From the NCBI GenBank assembly GCA_022709525.1, contig JAKLIQ010000005.1, positions 71,966 to 135,965 of the forward strand: DNA of 64,000 nt, given 5' to 3'. A model generated the notes under the pieces. It ran no database searches. It worked only from the letters and a program-made list of their open reading frames with translations, and was not told where the DNA came from. Positions 8,861 through 22,805 of this stretch are shown here, piece by piece. The DNA is from Candidatus Omnitrophota bacterium. Lineage in GTDB: Bacteria; Omnitrophota; Omnitrophia; Omnitrophales; Aquincolibacteriaceae. Each line of letters starts with the position of its first letter. The first letter of the stretch is position 1. The position numbers and the translations under genes are program-made.

Positions 8861-9201
8861 GCGGACCTCCACACGGCTTCAAGGCATTTGATTTCTCTTG
8901 AAAGAGGAAAAAATGCGAAATGATCAGACACTTTGCTCTGAATTCGTGCCGAATCTTTTTTGGTTTTGAGGAACGCACGGGCATTCTGAATGTGGTAAAC
9001 AACGAAAGATCCGGCTTTAAAGACCGGGGAGAAAATTTTCTCGACTTGGCCAAACCCGAAAAAAGACGGATAGACGGACTGCTCGACCGACGAGCCAAGA
9101 GAAGCGGGATTGGCCCACAGGATATCGGGAGAAAACAAGCTAACGATCAAAAAGAAGGAGAGAAAACGAAAACGTGATCTCACCCAGCCAAAAGCATTCA
9201 C
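8857..9201 (-). CDS. Small secreted protein, paralogous to the N-terminal ~100 aa of the giant protein.
   Basis: 114-aa ORF with an N-terminal signal-like hydrophobic segment. SVYPSFFGFGQVEKIF...VVYHIQNARAF aligns with giant-protein LSYLSQEIGRVDEIQI...WIYHIQDAHAV. Its stop overlaps the giant-gene start in an ATGA arrangement. Confidence 0.5.
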   Translation of the reverse strand: MNAFGWVRSRFRFLSFFLIVSLFSPDILWANPASLGSSVEQSVYPSFFGFGQVEKIFSPVFKAGSFVVYHIQNARAFLKTKKDSARIQSKVSDHFAFFPLSREIKCLEAVWRSA

Positions 9202-9275
9202 AAAAAACCTGTGAGAAACGGAAGTTTGAATTGTCCGCTAAGCTTTTGGACCTAGACGGAACCTTCACGCTTCTA

Positions 9276-9329
9276 GCTGGGTGTTTATTTAGCTGGGTAT
9301 TTCTTTACTACGCTGGGTGTTTGCTGGGT
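9276..9329. repeat. Array of four direct GCTGGGT(G/A)TTT repeats, spaced 16, 20 and 11 bp, upstream of the giant-gene operon. Inverted copies (ACCCAGC) sit at 9182-9188 and 9639-9645.
   Basis: Seen directly: gctgggt at 9276, 9292, 9312 and 9323. The reverse-complement motif cgcacccagct at 9636-9646 recurs identically at 35398-35408. Confidence 0.6.
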
Positions 9330-9710
9330 TAACTTTAAAACTTTTTTTAAAAAATTTCCGTTTTTTTCAGAAACGAACAACCGAAATATAACCGCACATT
9401 TCTACGCCGTCAAGATTTTGATGCAAAATAATTTTTTTTCTAGCTTTTCCGGTGCTTTTAAAATCGCGAAACTCTCGGGCTAAAAAAGTTTATAAAGTCT
9501 CTGTCCTGGTTCAATATCAACCGCTTTCTTTCATATTCTTCTGCGATTTATAGCAATTTTTACCGACCCCGGCACTATTCAAACCCGTTTTGATCGGGTA
9601 TCTTTCTATTAGGAAGAAAAAACGGCTAGATGGCGCGCACCCAGCTAAGGACGCAACCACCAGGGTCTTCGGCCGGAAGACCTTTTCGCCGCCTTAATCT
9701 TCAAATCATT

Positions 9711-9953
9711 TCAAAGAATTTTCCGCTGTTTAAAAAATTTGGAGATTATTTCTTTTTCGTCAACGGAGAGTTTGAGCAATCCTTTTTCAACGAGGTCAAT
9801 ATCCTCGTACGAAATCCCCGTCTTTACCGCGAGCTCAATCAAGGTAACGCCCCGTTTTTTTCGCCGCTGTGTTAACAACTCGCCATAGTCCTTCGTTAAA
9901 TCTCTCCGGACCTTCCACTGCGGTGCTGATGCAAGCATTTCACATAAAGACAT
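9711..9953 (-). CDS. Small XRE-family helix-turn-helix regulator.
   Basis: 80-aa ORF. GVTLIELAVKTGISYEDIDLVEKG is a typical HTH_XRE helix pair. AT-rich context. Confidence 0.55.
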   Translation of the reverse strand: MSLCEMLASAPQWKVRRDLTKDYGELLTQRRKKRGVTLIELAVKTGISYEDIDLVEKGLLKLSVDEKEIISKFFKQRKIL

Positions 9954-9976
9954 TCCTTGCTCCTTTGGATCGAATT

Positions 9977-10438
9977 TTAAAGTTCTTCGGTGTTGGCTTG
10001 CTTTTCAACTTGAGTCCCGGTCTTTAAACTTTGATGGATTTCAAAAAAGCCTGGGACATTAAAAATCTTGCGTATTTTTAAAATAAGGTCTTTGGCTTTG
10101 CAACGCTCCTGTTCATCCCCCAAATCAAAATAACGCTTCAAAGAGCTTGCGAGCTCGACCCAGCAGACCAATGCCTCAGATGAAATCAGCGAGAGCCTCT
10201 GCACGAAAGATCCGCCCTTCTCAAAAATCGAAGCCAACACGATTTGTTTGATGGTTTTCAGTTCCGAAGGACAAACATCAAGAAGCTTTGAGATAAAATC
10301 CGTGGCTTGAAGAATACGGTCTATGCCGGGCGATGAAAAAACCCGGTCAACCCAATGGGCCCATTCCACGGCCTCTTCGTAAAGCAACGCTGATCCACGG
10401 AGTTTTTCGATCTCAACAACCATAAATCTCCCCGCCAA
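9977..10438 (-). CDS. Hypothetical protein.
   Basis: 153-aa ORF, 24 bp downstream of the next ORF in the same orientation. No recognisable motif. Confidence 0.4.
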   Translation of the reverse strand: MAGRFMVVEIEKLRGSALLYEEAVEWAHWVDRVFSSPGIDRILQATDFISKLLDVCPSELKTIKQIVLASIFEKGGSFVQRLSLISSEALVCWVELASSLKRYFDLGDEQERCKAKDLILKIRKIFNVPGFFEIHQSLKTGTQVEKQANTEEL

Positions 10439-10540
10439 GTTCCGCTTCTACCGCCGCTCTTATCCGTTTCGCGGAAAGTTTAAACCAGCGACAATATTTT
10501 TTGATTTTCCAACTCAAACCTTTTGATCCTTTTTGATGGC

Positions 10541-11038
10541 TCATTTTCGTACCTCCTCTATGGTGTTGTGTCCGGCGTTTCGACGGCCCAACTTGGTGAT
10601 TTCACCGCGATAACCCGTAAAGCTTGGAACGTAATTAAATTGGTACCCCATGCCTTGATACACCCGCGTGATCATCTCAAACGCTCTTTCGCAATGAGTT
10701 TTCGATACATAGGGATAAACCGTCATGTAACGCTTCAAATACCTGAAAGCATTCCGTGTGGATTTCGGCGCGGTTGTCGCGATAAAGTGATGCTCGATCT
10801 CATCGAGGAAGAACGCGCTTTTCATCATGCCGAAAGAGTCCCGAGGCTGGATATACTGCATTTTCATGAGAAGGAGCATCATTTTATTGTTAAACCAAGC
10901 GCGAACAACGTTGTCTAACTTATAGCAACAGCGTTCTTTTTCGATATTCTTTGATAAAAGCATATTACTCATTTCTGTATTATTTTTTTCATTTTTATGA
11001 TTGCTTGTTTCCGTTTCTTTATCCATCGTTTGGTTCAT
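10541..11038 (-). CDS. Hypothetical protein with a low-complexity N-terminus and a C-terminal R-x4-H (RRNAGH) HEPN-like motif.
   Basis: 165-aa ORF in an AT-rich region. The N/K/E-rich N-terminus and RRNAGHN near the C-terminus are reminiscent of the HEPN Rx4-6H motif. This is a weak inference. Confidence 0.35.
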   Translation of the reverse strand: MNQTMDKETETSNHKNEKNNTEMSNMLLSKNIEKERCCYKLDNVVRAWFNNKMMLLLMKMQYIQPRDSFGMMKSAFFLDEIEHHFIATTAPKSTRNAFRYLKRYMTVYPYVSKTHCERAFEMITRVYQGMGYQFNYVPSFTGYRGEITKLGRRNAGHNTIEEVRK

Positions 11039-11179
11039 CCTTCCCTCTTCTAAAACGAACTATGCCTGATATTTTTTCGTAAGTCAAATAACAGAGCCTA
11101 CTTATATATGATTTAATTCTGTTTGTTTTAAACGCTGTTTACGATTGCTCATTTCGGCATTCTGTGCTATCCTAAGGGT

Positions 11180-12553
11180 ATGTATACGTATCAGAGAATC
11201 TGGAAAGACTACAAAGCGGACTTCTATAAACGAAACCCCCGGTTTCCAAGGGAAAAATCCTTCTCAGTAGGCCGAGCCCTTTGGGCAATCAGTAGACAGA
11301 AGAGAATCAAGTTCCTTGAAATCGCTCAAAAAACGGGAATGCTTGAGGGAAGCATCCTCAGAATGAGCTCTTCTCACAAGCTGACGACTACCCCCGAAAG
11401 GGTTAAAGCTCTAACCGAAGCATTAGGCGTTGGCCTTGATGAATTCTTTCGTTCGGCTCGTGAAGAGTTTTTCGGGAATTTCTTCATCACCAAAGCGATC
11501 ATGCCGCCCGAAAAGGAAGTAAGGGAGTACGCAAGGCAGGGGCTTTTTCTTCAAAAACAATCGGTCCTGAAATACCCGGCTACCGATACGCCCGATTTTC
11601 AAGTGATCGTTTACTCTCCCCCAATCGAAAGTCTTGATGATTTTTTTTCGGCAACAATCCTGCTTTCACCGGGAAAGAGCATAAAGGACTGCTTGCTTCC
11701 AAGACCTGCGACAATTCATCTCCCCGTAATAAACGGAAATATCGAGATCAGATCGGAACATGAAACAAAAACGCTGCTCGCCGGACAAACAGCGCATTTT
11801 AATGGGGGCGTGAAACACTCGATTGTTAATCTTTCGAAAGATCGTACCGCAGAAATCCTGATTAGCTTTGCGCCAACCCTCATGCTTGCGCAGGAAATAA
11901 AAGATTCACCCTCCACAACATCAACCGAAAATCTCAACATATCACGCCTTGTGAAACAAACTCAAAGCTGGCTCTCACCGGCTCCAGAGATTTCGCTTCC
12001 TATAAGGGAAGTCGCGCTTTTCGCGGGATTTAAAACGAGGGATCTTGCTTTGCTATCACAAACAAAGCTCAGCAACTACCCTCTTGAGAAAATGGAACGG
12101 CTCGCCGAACTTCTTAAAGTTCCCATAGAAAAACTCTTTAAAGGCGATCCTTTCAACCAAAGACTTAATATTGAGATCACATCGGCTTCCGAACACGGCG
12201 CTTACGATTATCGGGCCCGGCATGGAATGACGTTTTATCCGTGGATTAAATTAGGTGCCGAAAAAAAAGAACTCTTTATAGGACAAGCAACATTCGATGC
12301 TCAATTCCTGCAACAAACCGCTATCGGTAACGAGCCGAGAGAAAAGATATGGAAGGGATTAAACCGTGGGTATCTGCTTGCCAAGGGGCTAAATGGGAAG
12401 CTTGGAGTACATGCGGGCGAGCGGCACAACTATACGAATATTGACCGGGAGGATACGGTGTATCTCGATATGAGCCTTGGATTTTCCGTCAGAAATTTCT
12501 CCGCTGCGGAACCGGCGAACTTCTTTCTGGTATCAAACGCTTCCCTGTTTTAA
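11180..12553 (+). CDS. Duplicated HTH(XRE)-cupin regulator.
   Basis: 457 aa. Two HTH-like segments (near residues ~40-90 and ~265-310), each followed by a beta-rich cupin-like region (e.g. IHLPVINGNIEIRSEHETKTLLAGQTAHFNGGVKHSIVN). It is the only long plus-strand gene in this block. Confidence 0.5.
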   Translation: MYTYQRIWKDYKADFYKRNPRFPREKSFSVGRALWAISRQKRIKFLEIAQKTGMLEGSILRMSSSHKLTTTPERVKALTEALGVGLDEFFRSAREEFFGNFFITKAIMPPEKEVREYARQGLFLQKQSVLKYPATDTPDFQVIVYSPPIESLDDFFSATILLSPGKSIKDCLLPRPATIHLPVINGNIEIRSEHETKTLLAGQTAHFNGGVKHSIVNLSKDRTAEILISFAPTLMLAQEIKDSPSTTSTENLNISRLVKQTQSWLSPAPEISLPIREVALFAGFKTRDLALLSQTKLSNYPLEKMERLAELLKVPIEKLFKGDPFNQRLNIEITSASEHGAYDYRARHGMTFYPWIKLGAEKKELFIGQATFDAQFLQQTAIGNEPREKIWKGLNRGYLLAKGLNGKLGVHAGERHNYTNIDREDTVYLDMSLGFSVRNFSAAEPANFFLVSNASLF

Positions 12554-13344
12554 ACCTGAATAAGGTTACCCCAGCGTCTTATCGCCGCAATAAAATCGTC
12601 GAGATTAACGGGCTTCGTTAAGACCTCACAAGCACCCACCCCGAGCAGACGATCTTTCTCATGGAAAAAGCTAGTAAGACCGGTAAATACCTTTATCGAG
12701 GAATAATCGGTGGATGCTTTCATTTTTTTGATAAGCGCATCCCCGTCCATTAGCTGCATTTTAAGATCCGTGCATAACACGTTCGGTTTGAAAAGTTTGG
12801 CGATTTTGAGGGCTTCTTCGGGAGAATGGGCGGGCTCCGCTTCCGCTCCTTCGGCTCTTGCGAGTTCCACGCTGAAATCGGCCACTTCAGGTTCATCATC
12901 TACGAAAAGAATGCGAAGATTGCTTTCGGGAACTTTCCGGTTTTTCAAACCCAAAAGGTCCTGTTTCGAGAGAGCCAATTCCTCCCCGATCATGGCTTCC
13001 AATTCGCGGTTCGTTTGGTATGCACTCGATTTTTCGACAACACGAACATTAAGGCTTTGGACCTGCTCGCGATAATTATTCAGATAACCCGTAACGACAA
13101 TAACGCGAATGTCCGGCATTATTTCCCGCATTTTAGTGATGACTTGGATACCGTTGATGCGGGGCATCTCAAGATCAATGCAGGCAACGCTTGGGCGATG
13201 AGCCTCGACAAGACGAATCGCTTCTTCCTGATTCGTGGTGCCCCAAGCGACAAAGCCGCGAACTTTAAGAGCCGATTGAAGGGCTCTTACGTTTATTATC
13301 TGATCATCCAAAATTAACGCGGAATAAATCTTTTCGTCAGCCAT
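12550..13344 (-). CDS. Response regulator with two tandem receiver (REC) domains and no output domain.
   Basis: 264 aa. ILDDQ...CIDLEMP...IVVTGY and ILFVDDEPEV...CTDLKM...TKP show two sets of receiver Asp/Lys signatures. It is a paralog of 18349..19137, sharing the nucleotide string atcaatgcaggcaacgcttgggcgatg. Confidence 0.8.
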   Translation of the reverse strand: MADEKIYSALILDDQIINVRALQSALKVRGFVAWGTTNQEEAIRLVEAHRPSVACIDLEMPRINGIQVITKMREIMPDIRVIVVTGYLNNYREQVQSLNVRVVEKSSAYQTNRELEAMIGEELALSKQDLLGLKNRKVPESNLRILFVDDEPEVADFSVELARAEGAEAEPAHSPEEALKIAKLFKPNVLCTDLKMQLMDGDALIKKMKASTDYSSIKVFTGLTSFFHEKDRLLGVGACEVLTKPVNLDDFIAAIRRWGNLIQV

Positions 13345-13348
13345 ACCG

Positions 13349-13846
13349 TTAGTTATCCTCCCACTGTTTATTTTTTAATTCTTCCTTAATCTCGCGAATA
13401 TCCTGAAGCAATTCTTCCGTTTCCGTGCGTTTAGCCTTTTCTTCGGCCTTACGGCGTTCGTAATCTTCCAGAAAACGAGCCCGAATTAGATCGTGAACGG
13501 CATTGCGGATTTGAACCATCCGAAAATTGGAAGAATTAAGAGTCGCGTGCGCTTCGCTTTCAAGAGCGGGTTTTGTGTGAATATTATTGGACTCCAAAAG
13601 CAAGAGAAGTTTTGGAGAAGGAACGATCTTGCGTTTTAAATCTAACAAGATTTCCGGGGAGAGATCCGGGTTATCGTCACCGTTTATGATAATAACATCG
13701 ACCTCTTCGCGTTTCCCGATTTCAACGGTTTCAGCAGCAGTCGCGGCCCGATAAACCAGATAGCCTTTCATGAACTTCGTAAAGATATTCTCGATACGAT
13801 TGCTAACCTCTCCCGTTTTATCAAACGTAAGAATTTTAAAAATCAT
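13349..13846 (-). CDS. Receiver-like domain protein with a coiled-coil C-terminal tail.
   Basis: 165 aa. DVIIINGDDNPD in a CheY-like fold context. K/E-rich C-terminus. Its start overlaps the upstream HK stop (ATGA). Confidence 0.5.
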   Translation of the reverse strand: MIFKILTFDKTGEVSNRIENIFTKFMKGYLVYRAATAAETVEIGKREEVDVIIINGDDNPDLSPEILLDLKRKIVPSPKLLLLLESNNIHTKPALESEAHATLNSSNFRMVQIRNAVHDLIRARFLEDYERRKAEEKAKRTETEELLQDIREIKEELKNKQWEDN

Positions 13847-16158
13847 TGCAGCTCTTCCTCGTCCTTCCAGATCGGAAGCTTGATGATAAACGTGGTGCCT
13901 TTGCCAACCTCGCTTTGAACCAAGATTTTCCCTTTATGCTGGCCTTCAATGATCGCTTTTACGTTATAAAGACCTTTTCCTTCCCCCTCAGAACCCTTGG
14001 TCGTAAATCCATAATCGAAAATCTTGGGAAGAACGTCAGGAGGAATTCCCTTCCCATTATCGGAAAATTCAACGCGAACCATGTCTTTATCATCAGGGTC
14101 AAGCATCGCACGAATTTCGATTTTCTTGGGAAAAATGCCGTCCATAGCATGAATGGAATTTTTGAAAAAGTTAATGAAAACGGCCTTTAAAAGTTCCGTG
14201 TGACCGCGAACCGAAGGAAGCTCGCGAGGAGCATCGACTTCAGGGGGATTCTCAAAACCTTGAGTTTTTACGCGATCTCCATACGTCCTGAGCATACCTA
14301 TCGTCACAATCCCTTTTAAAAAGGTTCTGATAGAAATGCGGCCCATTTTGGCGTATTTGCCCTTGCTGATCTCGGCCAAGGTGCGAGCCACATCATCAAT
14401 ATGCTGACTAGCCTGTTGAACGATGATAATGGCACCTAACGCTTCCTCAAGATTCTCAAAAAGCTCTCGCTTTTGACGAACAGGAACAGCATCGCCCGAC
14501 CTATACCATAGCTTCAAAGATTTACCGATATGGTCAAGTGCCGCTGCGACTTGATCGGCATTGTTGGTCAAACCATAGATGGAATTTTTGATTTCATGGT
14601 TAATACCGCCGGAAAGAGCAGAAACGGCGGCCTCCTCCTTCGCCTGAATGACTTCCGCTTGGGTTCTTTTCAATTCATCGTTCATTTGCTCAAGCTTTAT
14701 GTTTTGTTCGATGAGTTCGTCGTGCTTACGGGCATTTTCAAAAGCAATGGCGGATTCCAACGCAATCGTTTGAAAGAGGTTAATATCCTCCTCGTTATAA
14801 GTTTCATCGGATTTTTTTCCATCCAACACTAAAAGGCCCTGAAGCTTACCCTGATAAAAGCTGGGCACGATGAGATGTGCGCGAAGACGCTTCATGTCTT
14901 CCAACAGTTTTGGCAAATTATAAGAATACATGGCATTTTTCGCATACTTCGTTGCAGCTTCTTCTATCGACTGATATTCCAAATAGGTTTTTTTCTTCTC
15001 GGCTTTCAGATACAAAAGAATCGGCGAATCATATTCCAACTTCTTTATCTGATTAGTCATTTCTTCGGGACGGGATGCTTTTAAAATAAAATTGTTTTCG
15101 CCATTTTCGGGCATATAAATCGCGGCACCTTTGATCCTCGCCCTCAGTGTCAAGAAATGCACCACAAGGCGCAGTTGATGATTCAAACTGTTAATATCCG
15201 CTAAACCTTCACTGGCGATTTTTAATATTCTTCGATAATCAAATTTTTTCTGGAATAGATACTTGTCGGTGAGATTAAGAAGAAGCCGTTCCAATGGGCT
15301 AAAAATTAACGCCGTAGTTATAATCCCTAATAATAAAATAACAAAAGGAGAAGGAGCTCCAAAAACATTTCCTATAGCAACCTGAATTAGGGCAAAAGGA
15401 AAAGCAATTACAGAGACGGCGGCAGCTACTATTCCGGCAAACACTAAGGTCTTTTTTACAATAACTTCAACGTCAATAAATTGATAACGAATCACAGCGT
15501 AAAAAGTAACGCAAACAAAAAAGAAAACGCCCCAAATTCCATAAGGAAATGGAAATAGCTCGATATTATAAACTGGTAAAAAGCAACCAATCCCGCCAAG
15601 ATAACCTAAGGAATTGGCTATTATAAAAAATAATAATTTTTTCTTTTCACCGCCAATCCGCATTCTCGCTTCTAAAAACAATACGGAAAGCGTAAGCATA
15701 ACAAGCAGTACAAATAATGCCGTCCACAAATAAAACAAAGGTCCTGCATTGGGGAAAAAGTGGAAAGTGAATTTTGGAACAACATCCGATATAAATAATT
15801 GGGGTTTTATTAAAATAGAAGCTGATATTATTCCCGCTATAAAATAGGAAATTATTATTACACGCCGCAGCCATTGTTTTTTGCTGTTAATTAAAACGTA
15901 GGAAAAATGCAGAAAAGCAACGGGGATAAATACACCTATAAAATGGCATATCCTTGCTAGCTGATATGAAAGCTCGTGATCTGACACATAAGTGCATGCA
16001 AAAACAAAAAAACTCCAGTGCGCTATGCAGAAAGCATACCAAATAAAATGATGTGCCAACTTTCGATTAGGTGAGTTTCTAAAAACAAATATCGCAAATA
16101 CAAATGCTGTTACAGCAGTAACTAATGCGGATGTGAAATAGTGTTGAGCTGGCGTCAA
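13843..16158 (-). CDS. Multi-transmembrane sensor histidine kinase (N-terminal ~300-aa polytopic membrane domain, GAF-like region, HisKA, HATPase_c).
   Basis: 771 aa. Many hydrophobic helices at the N-terminus. H-box GGINHEIKNSIYGL. C-terminal G-boxes DNGKGIP and GSEGEGKGLYNVK...GKGTTF. The N-terminal membrane part is markedly AT-rich. Confidence 0.85.
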   Translation of the reverse strand: MTPAQHYFTSALVTAVTAFVFAIFVFRNSPNRKLAHHFIWYAFCIAHWSFFVFACTYVSDHELSYQLARICHFIGVFIPVAFLHFSYVLINSKKQWLRRVIIISYFIAGIISASILIKPQLFISDVVPKFTFHFFPNAGPLFYLWTALFVLLVMLTLSVLFLEARMRIGGEKKKLLFFIIANSLGYLGGIGCFLPVYNIELFPFPYGIWGVFFFVCVTFYAVIRYQFIDVEVIVKKTLVFAGIVAAAVSVIAFPFALIQVAIGNVFGAPSPFVILLLGIITTALIFSPLERLLLNLTDKYLFQKKFDYRRILKIASEGLADINSLNHQLRLVVHFLTLRARIKGAAIYMPENGENNFILKASRPEEMTNQIKKLEYDSPILLYLKAEKKKTYLEYQSIEEAATKYAKNAMYSYNLPKLLEDMKRLRAHLIVPSFYQGKLQGLLVLDGKKSDETYNEEDINLFQTIALESAIAFENARKHDELIEQNIKLEQMNDELKRTQAEVIQAKEEAAVSALSGGINHEIKNSIYGLTNNADQVAAALDHIGKSLKLWYRSGDAVPVRQKRELFENLEEALGAIIIVQQASQHIDDVARTLAEISKGKYAKMGRISIRTFLKGIVTIGMLRTYGDRVKTQGFENPPEVDAPRELPSVRGHTELLKAVFINFFKNSIHAMDGIFPKKIEIRAMLDPDDKDMVRVEFSDNGKGIPPDVLPKIFDYGFTTKGSEGEGKGLYNVKAIIEGQHKGKILVQSEVGKGTTFIIKLPIWKDEEELQ

Positions 16159-16162
16159 TTTC

Positions 16163-17152
16163 TTAATTCCTCGCGAAGCAATATTGCATAATTTTTAAAG
16201 GCTCATACTTTAAGTTAAGACTCGAAGATATAAACCCTGCACTCTCAAATATCTTCAAAAACTCTTGTTCGGTTCTATAAACCAACTCCCAGTCCCCTCC
16301 CCATTCCATGAAATGTCTTGCGGGGTTACTCCATTTATCCCGATAATTTGAAATGATCAATAAACCGTTAGGAACTAAAAGTTTTTTAAGATTGGCCACC
16401 AACCGAGTCGATATTTTTTCATCCAAGTAGTCAAAAAGTCCTGTGGAAAATATTAAATGATATTTTTCCGAAAAATACCCTTCAATGTTTTTAGTTAAAG
16501 CTAATTTAATAACATTTTTTTGAAGAAAACATATTTGTTTATTAAAAGTCTTTGTTTTCAGTTTGGACTTTGAATGTTCGATAGCATTTATATCGTGATC
16601 CAAGCAATCCATTAAAACATTCCCCCCTAATTCTTTTGCTTGGTCATAGAACTCGATAATATCAGTACATGGACCTGATGCCAGATCCAAAATTCGAATC
16701 TTGCGTTTTAAAGCATTCTCTTTAGAAAAATCCATTAAAAATTGCTTAAAGTCTTCTTTTCGATTTCTCGTTGCTACGGAAGCTGATGCTTTTAAAAAGT
16801 AGTTGTCCATACATCGTTCAATTCCAGTAGTGTTGGGGGAATTTTTATAAATCTCATCAATAATCATAAAATCGCCATGATACCCATACGGTTTATCAAT
16901 TACATGACGATTGTATTTTCCTAAGCGTATAAGGTCTCGGCAATGCTGGATGAACAAGTGCTTCATTTCATATACTTTACTTTCGTTTGATTCATTATTT
17001 TTCTCAAAATTCGAAAGCCAGTCAAAAACTTCATCAAGAATACTATCTATGTCTTTTTGAGCGTTTTGCCAACCATTAGGCTGAATTTCTAATTCTTTTT
17101 TAACTTTTTCTATTTTCCCTTTATACATCTGAATCATCTCGGAGATATTCAT
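16163..17152 (-). CDS. Class I SAM-dependent methyltransferase with a ~140-aa helical N-terminal domain.
   Basis: 329 aa. Motif I ILDLASGPCTD. Post-I acidic DCLDHD. Motif LIISNY. Not CheR-like (no AxSxGCSTGEE). Very AT-rich gene (~33% GC). Confidence 0.7.
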   Translation of the reverse strand: MNISEMIQMYKGKIEKVKKELEIQPNGWQNAQKDIDSILDEVFDWLSNFEKNNESNESKVYEMKHLFIQHCRDLIRLGKYNRHVIDKPYGYHGDFMIIDEIYKNSPNTTGIERCMDNYFLKASASVATRNRKEDFKQFLMDFSKENALKRKIRILDLASGPCTDIIEFYDQAKELGGNVLMDCLDHDINAIEHSKSKLKTKTFNKQICFLQKNVIKLALTKNIEGYFSEKYHLIFSTGLFDYLDEKISTRLVANLKKLLVPNGLLIISNYRDKWSNPARHFMEWGGDWELVYRTEQEFLKIFESAGFISSSLNLKYEPLKIMQYCFARN

Positions 17153-17156
17153 TAAA

Positions 17157-17552
17157 TTACTTCTTTCTTTTTTCTATGAGAGCATTTTTCACGGCCAAAA
17201 GAAGCTCTTGTATATCGAAAGGCTTCATAATATAGGCGTACGGCATAAGAGCTTTTGCTTCTTTTTCTTTTAGTTCATCTGCAAATCCAGTAATAAAAAT
17301 CGTTGGGATGTTTTCCATTTTTTTTCTTAAAAAGATTTCTCTTAATTTTAAGACGGTTTCAACCCCATCAAGTCCCGGCATTCTAATATCGGATATTATT
17401 AAATCGAAATTTTCTTCTTCCGCCATTTCACAGGCATCTTGTCCTTTCTTAGCAATAAAAACATCGTACCCGGTTTTTTCCAAAACCCTCGAAAAAGTTT
17501 TTGTTAATAATTCTTCATCATCAATCACAAGTATTTTTTTCTTGTCGTCCAT
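17157..17552 (-). CDS. Single-domain CheY-like response regulator.
   Basis: 131 aa. KKILVIDDEE...LIISDIRMPGLDG...IFITGF...IMKPF. AT-rich. Confidence 0.85.
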   Translation of the reverse strand: MDDKKKILVIDDEELLTKTFSRVLEKTGYDVFIAKKGQDACEMAEEENFDLIISDIRMPGLDGVETVLKLREIFLRKKMENIPTIFITGFADELKEKEAKALMPYAYIMKPFDIQELLLAVKNALIEKRKK

Positions 17553-17576
17553 TCTGGCATCTCTCCATTTATAAAA

Positions 17577-18272
17577 TTAACCGCCTTTTTTCGAATCTCC
17601 CGTTAGGGCTTCTTGAATTTTTTCCATTACCACCGTATCAAGATATTCTAAGTTCAACGGTTTTGTAATGTAATCACTTGCACCCAACTCCTTGGCTTTA
17701 TCAATAACAGGTTGATCCACAACCGCCGTAACCATAATGACCTTTATCTCAGGATTGTACTTTTTTATTTCCTGTAAAACCTGCACGCCATCACGCATCC
17801 CACCGCTTGACAGACGAACATCCAGAAGAACAATATTGGGATTGTATTCGCGTAGGATCTCAAGGGCTTTTTCGCCGGAATCGGCTGTGTAGGACTCATA
17901 ACCCTTGTCGCTAAAATAATCACCGAGAAATTCGATAATCTCGGCTTCATCATCAACACAAAGCAGCTTGATTTGTTTTACTTCTTTTTTACTTTTTTCT
18001 TCCATCGGTCGGTTCCCCATCTGTTGGATTTGAGATTCTGGTAAATTTTTTTGCAAAAACTTTACGACATCGCCGACCTTATGCATTCGTTCCACCGCTT
18101 CATCTGAAATCTCGCGGCCAAATGCTTCCTCAAGGGCGATTACGAGTTCTACTGTATCAAGACTCTCTGCCCCTAAGTCTTTTACAAATCGAGATTCTAA
18201 TTTCACTTCCTCGATTGGTAGTTTCAACAAATCGGCTACAATTCGTCGTACCTTTTCTGCAATGTCATCCAT
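17577..18272 (-). CDS. Fusion protein: N-terminal acyl carrier protein domain plus C-terminal receiver (REC) domain.
   Basis: 231 aa. Residues 1-77 ([30 protein letters not shown]) align near-identically with the E. coli AcpP core ([30 protein letters not shown]), including the phosphopantetheine Ser. Residues ~105-225 are a complete REC domain ([10 protein letters not shown]...VLLDVRL...MVTA...ITKP). Confidence 0.8.
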   Translation of the reverse strand: [231 protein letters not shown]

Positions 18273-18348
18273 TCCGGCCGAATGGTCCTTTCTTGCTCTT
18301 ATTCTTACTGCATAATACCCTTCTGTAGTGCTCTCTACGTGTTAAATT

Positions 18349-19137
18349 TTAGTTCTTCAAAAGCAAAGCCCAGCGCCGCATCGAGTTGATAATGGTCGTT
18401 AAATCAAAAGGTTTGCTCAAAACCTCATGAGCGCCAACCGAAAGAAAACGATGATGCGCATCTGGATCGCCAGTCATTCCAACAAAGATTTTAATCGAAG
18501 GATAACTGCCTAAGCGTATTTTTTTAATTAGTTCATCACCTTGCATTTGCGACATCGTTAAATCGGTACAAACAATGTCCGGCCTAAATGATGATATTTG
18601 AATTAGTGCCTCTCCGGGAGAATAGGCAACCTGAGCTTGAAATCCTTCTTCCTCGGCTATATGCTGCATAAAATCACAAATATCATCTTCCTCGCCCACG
18701 AACAATATGCGTGCTTTAAGATCAGGTTTTTCTCTGGTTTTTAAGGCATCAAATTCTTCTCGCGACAATTCAAGTTCCGCGCAAATGACCTTATCGAGTT
18801 CGTGCATTCCTCTTGAGTCTTTTTCAACAACACGAACCTTGAGAGCATCAACCTCCGCGTGATAAGTGTCTAAATACCCTGTAACTACAACCACACGAAT
18901 ATCCGGCATGATCTCTCGCATCTTTTTGATGACTTCGATACCATTCATCTGCGGCATATCCAGATCAATGCAGGCAACGCTTGGGCGATGGCTTTTCACA
19001 AATTCGATTGATGCAAGAGGGTCTTGAGTAGCAAAAGTCATAAACCCACGCCGTTTTAAGGCTTTCTGGAGAACGGCAAGAATTACGGCATCATCGTCCA
19101 CAAGTAGTGCGGAGTAAGCTATTTCTTTTTTATCCAT
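18349..19137 (-). CDS. Response regulator with two tandem receiver domains (paralog of 12550..13344).
   Basis: 262 aa. LLVDDDAVIL...CIDLDMP...VVVTGY and ILFVGEEDD...CTDLTM...SKP. Confidence 0.8.
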   Translation of the reverse strand: MDKKEIAYSALLVDDDAVILAVLQKALKRRGFMTFATQDPLASIEFVKSHRPSVACIDLDMPQMNGIEVIKKMREIMPDIRVVVVTGYLDTYHAEVDALKVRVVEKDSRGMHELDKVICAELELSREEFDALKTREKPDLKARILFVGEEDDICDFMQHIAEEEGFQAQVAYSPGEALIQISSFRPDIVCTDLTMSQMQGDELIKKIRLGSYPSIKIFVGMTGDPDAHHRFLSVGAHEVLSKPFDLTTIINSMRRWALLLKN

Positions 19138-19170
19138 TTACCGTATCCGGCTTTAATTGATGTTGATTTC

Positions 19171-19491
19171 TTATTTCAACCGCCAAAATGGCCCGATTTT
19201 CCATAAAACAAGAACGCTTGCAATGCATGCAATTATACCTATGACCAAAAGTATTGTAGTCACTTTTAATGCTATTTTGGGTAAACCTTTTTCAGTCTTT
19301 GGCTCCTTAGGTAAAAGAAATTCTGCGCCAATAAATAATGCTAAGAATATTAACGGAGCTGCTGCGTAACTCGGTGGGTAAAAGGTCAATGTAAGAATGA
19401 GAAATAGTGCCGCTAAGACAATCAACGAACGCACAATGATTTTCTCTATAGACATACTTCTCCCCCAAAATTGACCTTTTAAGCCTTTCAT
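19171..19491 (-). CDS. Small integral membrane protein (3 predicted TM helices).
   Basis: 106 aa with three hydrophobic stretches. It is the first gene of the minus-strand signalling operon, downstream of an AT-rich 380-bp spacer. Confidence 0.45.
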   Translation of the reverse strand: MKGLKGQFWGRSMSIEKIIVRSLIVLAALFLILTLTFYPPSYAAAPLIFLALFIGAEFLLPKEPKTEKGLPKIALKVTTILLVIGIIACIASVLVLWKIGPFWRLK

Positions 19492-19868
19492 TATTTATCG
19501 GAACTTTCGGCTCTATCTACAGTTAAATCCTCGCATCTATGCGGTTTCTTAATCTCACCGCCTCCTTTGATACCTAATCAAAAAGATCGCCGATCGTCTT
19601 AAGGAAAAATTTTGCAGTTTGCGGCTCATAGAAAACAAGGCGATCCACCCACTCCAGAAGACGAATTCTCGCGAAACCTTTTCAGCAATATGCAGCAAAA
19701 AATATGTTCTTTTTTTATTTTAAAATAAGAAAATTTTATAAGTAAGGCTTGCCATCGGCAAACGGGCAATGCTTCATAAAGTTACTCTTTGAAATTTTTG
19801 ACTTTCCCAGAGCTCCTAGAAAAATAAGAGAAAATTTATAAATTAAGAACACCTTGCACGGTTGATTA

Positions 19869-20489
19869 CTATTTTTTTCCTTGGAATTTACCCATAAAAA
19901 GAAGCTGTCGGATTCGTTCTTTCGACAGTCCCATCTGATACGCTACAGCTTGCAAGGTTCCTAATGTGGTATATAAATTCTTTGCTGAGCGAATTTTCTT
20001 TTTTGTTTCATTGGATATTTCTTTTCGATTTGAGCCGCCTCCAGCGGGCTGCTGACCAGAATAGTGCAGAGATCCTGTGTGGGCGATCAACTTCCATTCT
20101 CTAGTCGGCATCTTTGTGTAAATCTTACAAACCCGTCCTTTCCAGTGGAGGTCTTTCCCTGTTTTTTTATGCTGCCAAAGCGTGTCAATATCTACGACTG
20201 CATAAGCTCCGTCGCCTTCCTGGCTGATTTCAATTTTTATTGTATTTCTCCTATTATGAATTAAGTTGTAGCCGTCAAAGATATCCTGCCAGTTCTTTCG
20301 CCAACGCTTGTAATTAAAACGCCCTAATTCAAAAACCCAATGGACAGGATTGTGAGCATTTTGATGCGGAGGCCAAGGCCAAACCATATCTGGGTGAATA
20401 ATGGAAAGAAATAAATCGGGGTTTTTGGTATTCCATCCCCTTGTTTCGAGATCCACCATCGCTTGGATTTGAGCCTTAATGTTTTTCAT
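19869..20489 (-). CDS. Fusion of an NTF2-like/SnoaL-like (DUF4440-type) domain with a C-terminal sigma-70 region-4-like helix-turn-helix.
   Basis: 206 aa. The N-terminal 150 aa have a SnoaL/NTF2-like pattern. The C-terminal LYTTLGTLQAVAYQMGLSKERIRQLLFMG resembles the sigma-70 r4 TLEEVGKQFGVTRERIRQIE. The start overlaps the upstream gene by 4 bp. Confidence 0.5.
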   Translation of the reverse strand: MKNIKAQIQAMVDLETRGWNTKNPDLFLSIIHPDMVWPWPPHQNAHNPVHWVFELGRFNYKRWRKNWQDIFDGYNLIHNRRNTIKIEISQEGDGAYAVVDIDTLWQHKKTGKDLHWKGRVCKIYTKMPTREWKLIAHTGSLHYSGQQPAGGGSNRKEISNETKKKIRSAKNLYTTLGTLQAVAYQMGLSKERIRQLLFMGKFQGKK

Positions 20490-20992
20490 AATGATATTGT
20501 ATCGATTCCTTGCATTAATTCCTTCTCAAATTGGATACTCTTGTTCCCGCCTCTAGTTCTTCCGGCTTCCCAATCAGCAACCGCATCCAAACATACGCCT
20601 AGCTTTTGGGCCAGTTCCTTTTGGCTTAGGTCGAGACCAAGCCTTCTCTGTCTTAGGCGCCCCCCAAAAGTTTTTGGCTCAGCAGGGTAATCCTTATAAA
20701 TTAATGTGGGAGATACGGAGGCCAAATCCGGAAGTGTTTCTTTAAGCTTGCGGATTACGGAATAATCAGGTCTTAGCCCCCTCTTCTCCCAATGGATTAC
20801 TGAAGCTGGTGTTACCCTTACCTTGCGGGCCAATTCTTTAACCTGCCACCCTCTCTTCATACGTGCTAGCCGTATATGCTCCCCAAAGGTTTTGGGAGGA
20901 GGTAATTTTTCCCAAGCCTTTGGAATATTTATGCTTAGTGTATAGGTAAGAGCGTCCTCCGAAGAAAAGTTGTCGATAACTCCCACAGGCAT
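20486..20992 (-). CDS. Protein with two tandem XRE-type HTH domains.
   Basis: 168 aa. FGEHIRLARMKRGWQVKELARKVRVTPASVIHWEKRG and FGGRLRQRRLGLDLSQKELAQKLGVCLDAVADWEAG. Confidence 0.65.
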   Translation of the reverse strand: MPVGVIDNFSSEDALTYTLSINIPKAWEKLPPPKTFGEHIRLARMKRGWQVKELARKVRVTPASVIHWEKRGLRPDYSVIRKLKETLPDLASVSPTLIYKDYPAEPKTFGGRLRQRRLGLDLSQKELAQKLGVCLDAVADWEAGRTRGGNKSIQFEKELMQGIDTISL

Positions 20993-21471
20993 GTCCTTGC
21001 GGTTATCTCGGCGATACGCGCAAGACCTGCCGTTGTTCTTTAGGACAGATCCACAAGTACCGGTCTAAAATTTCGGGGCCGATCCTCGACAGGATCGATA
21101 TTCATATTGAAGTCCCGGCTCTTTCGTTCCAAACCCTTACAGGGCAAGAACCCGTGGAAGATTCGGCAACAATCCGTCAGAGAATTTGCGACTGCCGGAA
21201 AATACAGAGATCGCGCTATTCTAAAAGACCCTATAAAACAAATTCACAAATGTCCCCCAAGGATATCAAGGAGTTCGCAACGCCGGACCTCCAGGGCCGA
21301 AAACTCATTGAAATGGCGATGAAAGAACTTCATTTGTCAGCCCGGGCTTATTACAAGATCCTCAAGATCTCCCGAACGATCAGCGATCTCGCCGGTTGCG
21401 AGCAAATTCAAAGCGAACATATCGCAGAGGCGATTCAATATCGGAGCTTAGACAGGCAGTGGTATGGATGA
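20980..21471 (+). pseudogene. comM: 3' remnant (C-terminal ~164 aa) of a comM/yifB-family Mg-chelatase-like AAA+ ATPase gene. The N-terminal ATPase part is missing.
   Basis: The in-frame translation from the stop at 20977 reads ACPCGYLGDTRKTCRCSLGQIHKYRSKISGPILDRIDIHIEVP...EDSATIRQRI...LSARAYYKILKISRTISDLAGCEQIQSEHIAEAIQYRSLDR. This aligns with E. coli YifB ...CTPEQTLRYLNRLSGPFLDRFDLSLEIP...ESSATVKQRV...LSIRAWQRLLKVARTIADI...HLQEAVSYRAIDR. There is no upstream ATPase domain. The frame begins 12 bp from the divergent XRE gene start. Confidence 0.75.
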
Positions 21472-21575: not shown

Positions 21576-22259
21576 TTACTGAATCGCTACCTTCTGCGCA
21601 TCCTTCTGGCCCGGGGCTTTGGGCAGCGTGATGATCAAAACCCCATTTTTGTATTCCGCGACAATCTTTGATTCATCGACCAGCCCGGGCAAACTCAAGC
21701 TTCGCGCAAAAGAGCCATAGCTGCGTTCTTGCGCGTAATATCCGGTTTTTGGGTCTTGAGTCTCGTTCGCCGTCTGACGCACACCTTCAATCGTCAGGAT
21801 GTTCTCTTTCACGGTCAAATTAATTTTATCTTTCTCCAAACCCGGAAGATCGCTCTTGACGATATAAGCGTCTTTTGTCTCTTCAAGATCTACTGCCGGG
21901 GTAAAATCAAATCCAGCGCCTTGAGGCATATTCTGAAAAAGCGGCGAACCGAACATAAAGGCATGCTGCATCAGATTGCTCATGCGCCGACTCATCTGGT
22001 CGAAAGATTCCCATGGATCATCGTTGACCAAAAACTGAGAAAAAGCTCGTGGGGCTTGAGAGGCAGCGTTATGCGTTCTCGCATGCATGACAGATGCCGC
22101 GTTTTGACGCGCAAGAATTGATTCGTCCTGCCGTTTTTCAAGCGCTGTCTGCCGCCGGCCTTGTTGAACCAGTGTGACCGTCTGCAACAACACAACGATC
22201 GCGAGAATAGCAATGATAATATGTGTCCCTTTGATCTTTTTTTCCAATAGTTCGCTCAT
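21576..22259 (-). CDS. Membrane-anchored Hsp20/alpha-crystallin family small heat-shock protein.
   Basis: 227 aa. N-terminal TM helix (HIIIAILAIVVLLQTVTLV). C-terminal alpha-crystallin domain (AVDLEETKDAYIVKSDLPGLEKDKINLTV...GVLIITLPK). Confidence 0.8.
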   Translation of the reverse strand: MSELLEKKIKGTHIIIAILAIVVLLQTVTLVQQGRRQTALEKRQDESILARQNAASVMHARTHNAASQAPRAFSQFLVNDDPWESFDQMSRRMSNLMQHAFMFGSPLFQNMPQGAGFDFTPAVDLEETKDAYIVKSDLPGLEKDKINLTVKENILTIEGVRQTANETQDPKTGYYAQERSYGSFARSLSLPGLVDESKIVAEYKNGVLIITLPKAPGQKDAQKVAIQ

Positions 22260-22349
22260 AGGGGTTTCTCCTCTTTGGTAAAATGTCCTTATTTTCTATT
22301 GCAAGAACGCCCAACCCCGATCGGGCCCGGAGCAGGGCGTTTGCAATAT

Positions 22350-22805
22350 TTATTTTATATCGACTTTGATCTGTTTGGGTTTGGCTTTCTCGGATTTTGG
22401 AAGGGTCAATTCCAAGACGCCGTCTTTATAGCCGGCTACAACCTTGTCCGCGTCAACCTCAGCTGGCAATTCCACCGATCGCCGGAAACTTCCGTAGCGT
22501 CTTTCGGAATAGAAGTAACCTTTCCCTTTTTTACTCTCCTCTTCTTTGCGTTCTCCCTTGACCGTGAGCGTGTTTCCAACAACCGAGATGTCCAGGTCTT
22601 TGCGTTCCATTCCTGGGATGTCAAGATGGAGCAGGAACTGATTCTCGTCTTCCTTGACTTCAAGGCTTGGAAAAAATTCCCCAAAACTCGTCTCCGGGTT
22701 TCGGCGCAAAGACGAAGAAAATAAACGGTTCATGTCATCCTGCAGATCTGTGACAAGATCAAAGGGATCGATCCATCGATTCGTATGTTTCACAAGTGGG
22801 TTCAT
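22350..22805 (-). CDS. Hsp20 family small heat-shock protein.
   Basis: 151 aa. LEVKEDENQFLLHLDIPGMERKDLDISVVGNTLTVKGER...YGSFRRSVELP...GVLELTLPK. Confidence 0.85.
   Translation of the reverse strand: MNPLVKHTNRWIDPFDLVTDLQDDMNRLFSSSLRRNPETSFGEFFPSLEVKEDENQFLLHLDIPGMERKDLDISVVGNTLTVKGERKEEESKKGKGYFYSERRYGSFRRSVELPAEVDADKVVAGYKDGVLELTLPKSEKAKPKQIKVDIK

Follow-up and report, generated by a model that had tools for sequence, protein, structure and literature searches.

A recurrent junction at the CPCG codons of comM, probably one end of an integrative element in an Omnitrophota genome

comM as a landing site and the break in the window

The gene comM (yifB) encodes a helicase that aids the integration of transformed DNA, and its disruption has been discussed as a way for mobile elements to escape curing by transformation (PMC4774983, PMC12378983). 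Here we describe a stretch of 64,000 nucleotides from a Candidatus Omnitrophota genome (contig JAKLIQ010000005.1; hereafter the window), in which the 3' end of comM abuts a divergently oriented gene for a tandem-XRE regulator with two helix-turn-helix (HTH) domains, followed by a gene for a 206-aa protein that joins an NTF2-like domain to a further HTH. Among the elements known to target comM, Tn6022 (of the Tn7-like Tn6022/AbaR group) and Tsy (tyrosine recombinase, HTH protein and TnsF) are the two transposons characterised by experiment; both choose the gene via TnsF, and their insertions fall on the Walker B codons or no more than ~40 bp away from them (Faure et al. 2023, PMC10293859); with the present locus they share the comM specificity, a conserved ATPase motif as a portable site and cargo that often consists of defence genes (PMC10293859). 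Islands with a tyrosine integrase are known in comM from Aggregatibacter actinomycetemcomitans-type islands, Acinetobacter, Mannheimia, Francisella and Pseudomonas syringae (Croucher et al. 2016, PMC4774983; review PMC12378983), and A. ferrooxidans carries iMGE6 in the same gene, an island of 95 kb that has Int, RitABC and a direct repeat of 14 bp (PMC10322971). The same site-specific insertion at the orthologous comM position, in distant hosts and with variable cargo, characterises the tyrosine-integrase islands (PMC4774983, PMC12378983). This likeness holds at the level of the comM gene. No integrase was seen here, and the hosts are Omnitrophota and other uncultured phyla. None of PMC4774983, PMC12378983 and PMC10322971 describes a tandem-XRE gene that is terminal and begins on the junction with its start codon. 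We regard these islands as the closest known kind, of which the present element may be a relative.

Our preferred reading, to which we assign a rough probability of 0.75, is that an integrative mobile element, site-specific for comM, has its right-hand junction (attR-type) at position 20991/20992 of the window. The evidence consists of a junction that recurs to the nucleotide, an XRE gene that is always terminal, cargo that varies behind it and a similarity ranking that differs between element and host. In such an element the insertion point would lie immediately 5' of the conserved CPCG codons (5'-TGYCCNTGYGG), the tandem-XRE gene would be the terminal gene, reading inward from the junction with its start codon across it, and the NTF2-like/HTH fusion, as the next gene, would be accessory or regulatory cargo. 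Integration would probably be catalysed by a tyrosine recombinase whose gene lies at the other end, and the XRE protein may repress or otherwise control element or cargo genes.

The exact position of the break was obtained from comparisons with eight full-length ComM proteins using tblastn. A sequence-only reading of the window had placed the start of the comM remnant at 20980, in the middle of the CPCGY motif, and the plus-strand frame is indeed open from 20980 to a stop at 21469-21471. ComM homology, however, begins at 20992, the Cys codon of CPCGY and residue 356 of 516, so that the motif is intact and the break lies just 5' of it; the codons at 20980-20991 (LPQA) are foreign and lie outside comM. 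The truncation of comM thus held up, but the break within the motif did not. Over residues 356-515 the remnant is 49-53% identical to full-length ComM and it keeps the C-terminal end of the AAA+ domain with the CPCG...C.C motif (Pfam Mg_chelatase, PF01078, profile positions 158-206 of 207, E 2e-14) together with the whole Mg_chelatase_C domain (PF13335, E 3.5e-31). Residues 1-355 of ComM had no match anywhere in the 64-kb window.

Downstream of the remnant, the genes RR150, GGDEF and HK763 (a 150-aa receiver, a GGDEF-EAL protein and a PAS kinase) are syntenic with the related Omnitrophota contigs L007 and L009. The remnant is host DNA, namely the host's own comM 3' end on its native downstream flank. 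Comparison with related genomes had been proposed as a check on the sequence-only reading, and these two contigs provide it. L009 carries comM in one piece at the same place, before the same three genes, and represents the empty site, though its comM is frameshifted (9102-10625, spanning three reading frames with at least two frameshifts, either a pseudogene or an assembly error). In L007 comM is broken at the same codon as in the window, with homology from position 10031. In a three-way DNA alignment the uninterrupted copy of L009 reads GCCATGAACCCC up to the break, the window CCCACAGGCA and L007 ACCACAGGGA, each followed by TGTCC; window and L007 have a second block in common, TATAGGTAARA, ~40 bp further into the element. 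Further empty sites are represented by P0124-P0129, which are continuous through LVAAMNPCPCG, and at the DNA level an empty site would read ATGAAYCCN directly followed by TGTCCTTGCGG. Six contigs from different samples carry 9869-30489 at 100% identity, which excludes an assembly artefact.

Recurrence of the junction in other genomes

Only nine relatives of the tandem-XRE protein were found in 5.8 billion proteins, and each of the XRE homologues (65-83% identity) with readable context, in five contig sets, divergently adjoins a comM remnant. The junction between the two genes occurs in L093/L094/L095/L098, in L096, in L097 and in the window, and it is nucleotide-identical in them: the element side ends in GATAACTCCCACA, or over a longer span GTYGNCGATAACTCCCACA, followed by A, G or T and then GCA, and the comM side begins with TGTCCNTGCGG. 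The proposal that the window holds an island junction at a comM insertion hotspot is borne out by this recurrence, which is exact to the nucleotide and includes the terminal XRE gene. Behind that gene the content varies. In the window and in L097, the closest relative, it is an NTF2-like gene; in L096 histidine kinases follow; in L094 and L098 the XRE gene is followed by genes for a patatin, a CD-NTase and an E1/JAB protein, which together resemble an operon of the cyclic-oligonucleotide-based anti-phage signalling system (CBASS), and by GmrSD and a methylase. The CBASS-like operon lies at 808-5051 in L094 and 711-5008 in L098 and comprises a patatin, a SMODS/DncV-like nucleotidyltransferase and a 762-aa ThiF + Prok-JAB protein; GmrSD and a D12 methylase are additionally present in L094. 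L007 retains only ~30 codons of a decayed XRE N-terminus at its end, and beyond this trace lie ThiF, an XRE/ImmA pair, a Vsr-Dcm-NmeDI restriction-modification system and a Prim-Pol/PriCT primase, a gene set typical of mobile elements. The position of the XRE gene directly before a CBASS-like operon in L094 and L098 recalls the CapH-type XRE regulators that accompany CBASS, and the PADLOC capH model matches the first HTH (E 4e-7). However, this match is to a generic HTH, a CapP-like peptidase partner is lacking, and the same XRE gene precedes non-defence cargo in the window and in L096.

Element and host do not share one history at these loci. The window resembles L093 more closely in the XRE protein (73%) than in the comM remnant (53%), while towards L096 the values are 65% for XRE and 68% for comM; even the first 50 residues of comM track the host, with 30/50 identical to L093 and 37/50 to L096 by our own count. 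Since XRE and comM similarity rank the hosts differently, the element seems to have moved between hosts and the junction to have been re-created, and judged by these identities the XRE-comM junction does not appear to be one inherited arrangement. We also considered a fixed XRE-comM junction carried inside an element that integrates by homologous recombination and rejected it: similarity on the comM side goes with the host and not with XRE, down to the first 50 residues. An alignment used at first to look for more XRE loci was too divergent for searching, and a scan of metagenomes added one locus of the CBASS type. A scan of viral contigs yielded no XRE-type locus, and the 'phage' records that matched comM proved to be either ordinary bacterial contigs carrying a full-length gene or a fragment of an Acinetobacter chromosome.

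These comparisons bear directly on the simplest alternative, that the window shows a plain deletion or rearrangement scar in which the 5' part of comM was lost and the XRE/NTF2 operon came to adjoin the remainder by chance, with no site-specific element involved. The window contains neither a recombinase nor a second end, the neighbouring genes are signalling genes, and there is much rearrangement around comM in relatives (L099, L101) as well as two extra HSP20 genes in the window, all of which a scar would accommodate. Against a chance event stand a nucleotide-exact junction with a homologous XRE gene in at least five contig sets with different hosts and cargo, XRE and comM similarities that are incongruent, and a conserved terminal 23 nt. 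The recurrent junctions largely refute a scar, which we consider very improbable.

The terminal nucleotides of the element are themselves conserved. The XRE open reading frame (ORF) matches Pfam HTH_3 (PF01381) with E 4.7e-15 and 55.8 bits (cut-off 23) and HTH_31 with 48.9 bits (cut-off 27), each in two stretches. Its ATG straddles the junction, with the A contributed by comM and the TG by the element, and xVGVI(D/A)N comes next; a GTG that lies two codons further inward could serve as the start instead. Across the window, L093/L094, L096 and L097 the final 23 nt of the element are nearly invariant. Among four diverged copies the third positions of XRE codons 1-8 never vary, compared with invariance in 27/63 of the following codons, and the conservation of these 23 nt exceeds coding needs at roughly p ~0.001. 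Such third-position invariance points to a conserved recombination site of ~23 nt at the tip of the element, as far as can be judged from codon comparison. The window contains one copy of the tip only.

The element end has the form 5'-TG...CA-3' and contains TGTGGG, in which it resembles the termini of Tn7, and the locus could belong to a Tn7-like transposon of the Tn6022 type or to Tsy. Both are highly comM-specific with variable cargo, and Tsy carries a small HTH gene (PMC10293859). The break described here, in contrast, lies at the junction of sensor 1 and CPCG, 46 codons (138 bp) downstream of Walker B (LFLDE), and so differs from the sites of Tn6022 and Tsy, which are within ~40 bp of Walker B. 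None of their core genes is nearby: among the genes called within 21 kb there is no tnsA, tnsB, tnsC, tniQ or tnsF and no tyrosine recombinase, and neither repeated transposase-binding sites nor an inverted copy of the end came to light. The HTH gene of Tsy, moreover, sits at the 5'-comM end beside the tyrosine recombinase gene and not at the 3' end (PMC10293859). We consider membership in either group improbable.

The CPCG motif is used beyond the XRE-type loci. Most comM genes in the 80 species-representative genomes with a comM relative are full length (510-560 aa), and in four of ~73 assessable ones (L055, L033, L065 and L084) the gene is cut at the motif or at most six codons from it. A two-HTH XRE gene faces inward from the junction in L055 (Geothermobacteraceae) and L033 (Opitutaceae), and in L084 a tyrosine integrase lies 1.7 kb from a junction in the same motif. 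Breaks at the motif or a few codons from it, with a terminal XRE gene that is more distant or absent, were seen in L055, L033, L100, L084, L065, P0130, P0138, P0142 and P0143, and many short comM products in the databases consist of foreign residues directly followed by CPCG or CKCG (PHA/CPCG, THG/CPCG, VYG/CPCG and HQG/CKCG, the slash marking the break). In complete E. coli genomes yifB is intact in 5423/5426, and in the one split copy listed the gene is interrupted at nt 903, close to Walker B, so that E. coli offers no model of the CPCG site. Beyond the main remnant on its downstream side, L007 (11247-11345 and 11664-11768, around an IS200-like gene), L102 (3757-4248 and 6007-6516, around a HEPN pair) and L101 (2060-2224, at an IS3) contain additional fragments of the comM C-terminus, which suggests repeated events at the comM site.

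Duplicate comM 3' ends and the far end of the element

The comM remnants are open over 157-159 codons in all copies, and the ratio of nonsynonymous to synonymous substitutions (dN/dS) is ~0.03 with saturated dS (window, L007 and L097), unlike what is expected of an old pseudogene. Selection on the fragment itself would be one explanation: the ComM C-terminal fragment and the divergent XRE gene could form an expressed two-gene module with a function of its own. Besides the intact frame and the low dN/dS, a module of this kind would fit the finding that in all copies the start codon of XRE and the GGA-rich sequence before its GTG lie antisense to the CPCG codons. Yet the remnant lacks a start codon at or near its 5' end, the earliest being a GTG at 21154 that is not conserved in L007, and it tracks host similarity and not XRE similarity, first 50 residues included. 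A low dN/dS is in any case expected if insertions are recent or if the 3' ends were functional until they were displaced. We see little to recommend a selected module, and hold it to be hardly probable.

Displacement of a functional 3' end has precedents. Phage 21 and e14 at icd, and islands in tRNA genes, bring along the 3' end of their target, so that the gene stays intact and a 5'-truncated copy is displaced to the far junction. Two of the loci show the same displaced-copy pattern for comM. L101 has a full-length comM, with the native upstream flank DUF212-YkuD-AccA as in L009, and a separate remnant from CPCG onwards; the two copies are 96% identical at the protein level and differ at a proportion of 0.45 of synonymous sites (pS; 44.5%) and 0.02 of nonsynonymous sites (pN). 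L100 contains, in this order, a full-length comM, ~330 bp, an inward-facing single-HTH XRE gene whose ATG spans the junction, and a second comM 3' copy, the copies being 82% identical with pS 0.62 and pN 0.13. A full-length comM together with a diverged 3' copy, as in both loci, fits displaced or replacement 3' ends. The element may thus bring a replacement comM 3' end with it, in which case comM would stay functional and the remnant of the window may be a displaced duplicate; it is plausible, by analogy with these loci, that the element has its own comM 3' end and that a full-length comM lies beyond the window. Compared with the icd elements, the duplicated segment would be longer (~480 bp as against 165 bp in icd), and the pattern is that of L100 and L101, which the window's own element may share. 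The sequence-only reading had named an intact comM with a duplicated fragment as the finding that would speak against it: L101 and L100 carry a full-length comM with such a 3' copy, and the 64-kb window lacks the 5' part of the gene.

Several results weigh against our reading of the locus as an element end, and some against a replacement 3' end. The window as a whole, including the 21 kb on the left side of the junction, contains no recombinase, transposase, second end, core direct repeat or 5' part of comM. Inverted and direct copies of the terminal 19 nt and of a 22-nt core, as well as a general repeat search of positions 1-24000, gave repeats at chance level only; scans of the genes at 9-19.5 kb with NCBIfam, Pfam and PADLOC found no recombinase, the genes being those for receivers, a seven-transmembrane (7TM) kinase, a methyltransferase and family-less ORFs; and neither a repeated nor an inverted end sequence accompanies the absence of tns genes reported above. 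None of the loci, over the length that was read, which for L007, L094 and L096 stops short of the far end, contains both ends of an XRE-type element plus a recombinase. Behind XRE, both the window and L096 have genes for ordinary signalling proteins, which could be host DNA. The idea of a replacement 3' end rests on L100 and L101; the element end of L101 differs from the type of the window, and the XRE protein of L100 is a different, single-HTH protein, though its end has CAAGCA/TGTCC like L093 and L096. Finally, a comM 3' duplication occurs in L045 around plain metabolic genes and without a recombinase: in this metagenome-assembled Nitrospira genome (8945-16404) a near-identical copy of the last ~120 codons lies 5.6 kb downstream of a full-length comM, and the copies flank genes for a hydrolase, a flavodoxin, a dehydrogenase, an aldo-keto reductase and an AraC protein. 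With neither a recombinase nor a second end to the left of the junction, an integrative element in this genome is either very large, exceeding 21 kb, or decayed and rearranged.

Taken further, the observations could describe a family of comM elements that has not been described before, which would use CPCG instead of Walker B, place the XRE start codon and its ribosome-binding site across the att core, bring a replacement comM 3' end, carry defence cargo such as CBASS and include, in the NTF2-HTH protein, a new ligand-sensing regulator. We put this combination forward tentatively, as a possibility with the odds against it.

The NTF2-HTH protein and the neighbouring genes

The protein encoded behind the XRE gene combines two parts that are each found elsewhere. 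More than 2000 homologues of ~150 aa from many phyla (58-74% identity), labelled ketosteroid-isomerase-like or NTF2 family, cover only aa ~1-145, that is ~69% of the query. This ~150-aa family (P0002-P0120) is strongly conserved across Verrucomicrobiota, Calditrichota, Hydrogenedentes and other phyla, with the invariant motifs HPDMVWPWPP, VVDIDTLW and WKGRVCKIYTK and a Pfam match below threshold. For the protein of the window, the scores against SnoaL_2 and DUF4440 are 20.7 bits (cut-off 27) and 19.7 bits (cut-off 25.2). AlphaFold2 (AF2) models the core, residues 1-140, with a predicted local distance difference test (pLDDT) score above 90, and Foldseek retrieves ketosteroid-isomerase-like/NTF2 structures without assigned function at probability 1.0 and a target-normalised template modelling score of 0.75-0.81. 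A linker (aa 145-158), of low AF2 confidence and predicted to be disordered, leads to tail helices at 160-185 and 190-198 with a block-mean pLDDT of ~60-73. The tail matches Pfam Sigma70_r4 at aa 178-197 with 16.7 bits, below the cut-off of 24.1, and shows a weak likeness to region 4.2 of RpoH (E 0.001). Ten relatives of the tail were found with phmmer among 1.84 billion representatives, with the common module LYDELGTLEAVAxxxGLSRERVRQLL; they include a 76-aa stand-alone protein (60% identity), tandem arrays of 3-7 copies and fusions to other domains, and one of them, P0256, passes the Sigma70_r4 cut-off with 28.2 bits. The arrays, in P0250, P0251, P0252 and P0255, place 3-7 copies of the HTH module in one protein, an architecture that matches no family we could name. 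The domain search proposed for the fusion protein thus had a mixed outcome: an NTF2-like fold and a region-4-like HTH are backed by other evidence, while both Pfam matches remain below their cut-offs.

The sequence-only reading had suggested that the fusion might be a novel anti-sigma or sigma-mimic regulator and that a partner ECF sigma factor should be sought. Pfam gave no match to Sigma70_r2 in the 206-aa protein, neither Pfam nor NCBIfam detected an anti-sigma domain, and no sigma factor gene is found among the neighbours. PADLOC, PHROG-type and solved-structure sequence searches returned nothing specific to the protein. A member of a stand-alone NTF2 family joined to an independent HTH module, with no region 2 and no nearby sigma gene, does not support either role. 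ECF41/ECF56-type extracytoplasmic function sigma factors, such as SigJ of M. tuberculosis, carry a C-terminal SnoaL/NTF2-like extension and likewise tie an NTF2-like domain covalently to a sigma-70 region-4-type HTH. Here, by contrast, the order is reversed, with the NTF2 domain preceding the HTH, region 2 is lacking and only a 4.2-like helix-turn-helix is present; the NTF2 domain comes from another family, one of stand-alone proteins, and the HTH from a family of non-sigma modules. Our best guess is that the protein may act as a small-molecule-responsive DNA-binding regulator carried as cargo.

It is also possible, though we think it rather doubtful, that the fusion is accidental, a deletion or the loss of a stop codon having joined an NTF2 gene to a small HTH gene with no joint function. 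Nearly all of the >2000 homologues end at ~150 aa, the full 206-aa protein was seen only as 100% identical copies, the HTH module also stands alone as the 76-aa protein, whose last ~20 residues are missing here, and the linker is predicted to be disordered. Against an accident speak the frame, which is open and identical on six contigs from different samples, and the nearest homologue, P0002 (74%), which runs past the NTF2 domain with a similar linker (GDSNKKKVSEET compared with GGGSNRKEISNET); going by this similarity, the NTF2-HTH fusion may be older than the present genome. The L097 contig ends before the position of the tail. On the contig of P0002 (L090, 1486-2271) the P0002 gene and the beginning of another ORF overlap; the latter corresponds to an internal piece of the beta' subunit of RNA polymerase.

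The gene layout that had been read from the sequence, a comM 3' remnant beside a divergent pair of tandem-XRE and 206-aa genes overlapping by 4 bp, was recovered with all its ORFs, and the AT-rich gap estimated at ~380 bp was confirmed (Table 1). The gap contains a terminator-like hairpin on the minus strand at 19763-19747. Rfam families and tRNA genes are absent from the 64-kb window, and a promoter scan found sites no more numerous than in shuffled sequence.

Table 1. Positions of the features at the comM junction, numbered from the first letter of the window.
Feature	Positions	Strand	Description
comM/yifB 3' remnant	20992-21471	+	159 codons + stop, from the Cys of CPCGY to the natural stop
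Conserved element terminus	20969-20991		+ strand reads GTTGTCGATAACTCCCACAGGCA
Tandem-XRE regulator gene, two HTH domains	20486-20992	-	168 aa; Pfam HTH_3, HTH_31
206-aa NTF2-like/HTH gene	19869-20489	-	4-bp overlap with XRE ORF (20486-20489)
NTF2-like domain, aa 1-143 of 206-aa protein	20061-20489	-	homologues, AF2, Foldseek
Sigma-70 region-4-like HTH module, aa 155-206	19872-20027	-	phmmer relatives, AF2 helices
AT-rich intergenic gap	19492-19868		377 bp, 36% GC; follows XRE/NTF2-HTH operon
Low-GC stretch	9000-19491		41% GC; composition, Pfam labels; receiver, histidine-kinase and methyltransferase genes, several family-less ORFs

Base composition changes at the junction, with a GC content of ~0.53 on its right and 0.34-0.46 on the left side at 9-21 kb. 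The low-GC stretch of Table 1 may be element cargo or unrelated DNA. Two paralogous double-receiver proteins of 264 and 262 aa are encoded within the low-GC 9-21 kb at 12550-13344 and 18349-19137 on the minus strand, with 78% nucleotide identity across 171 nt, and the same stretch contains a PP-binding/receiver fusion and a 7TM histidine kinase. Further left, a stop-free frame of at least 2959 codons (2-8878, minus strand) has its start near 8878 and is cut off by the left end of the window; its only Pfam matches are HEAT repeats near its C-terminal part. On the other side, two HSP20 genes (21576-22805, minus strand) lie between the comM remnant and the receiver gene and are missing at the same place in L007 and L009, which indicates a second local insertion in the window.

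comM-targeting islands were known before; what the present data add is a second portable landing motif, CPCG, and a terminal XRE gene across the junction. Walker B is the experimentally characterised site; CPCG would add another conserved coding motif to the portable landing sites within comM, this one used in uncultured phyla, and at least two kinds of element appear to share the same few comM nucleotides: those that end in an XRE gene and those that have an integrase near the junction. For annotation, a ComM C-terminal ORF of ~160 codons that starts at CPCG would mark the border of an island and not a gene. If it is true that elements bring their own comM 3' end, the hotspot could be occupied without a knockout of comM, and the 'anti-transformation' reading of such insertions would have to be qualified.

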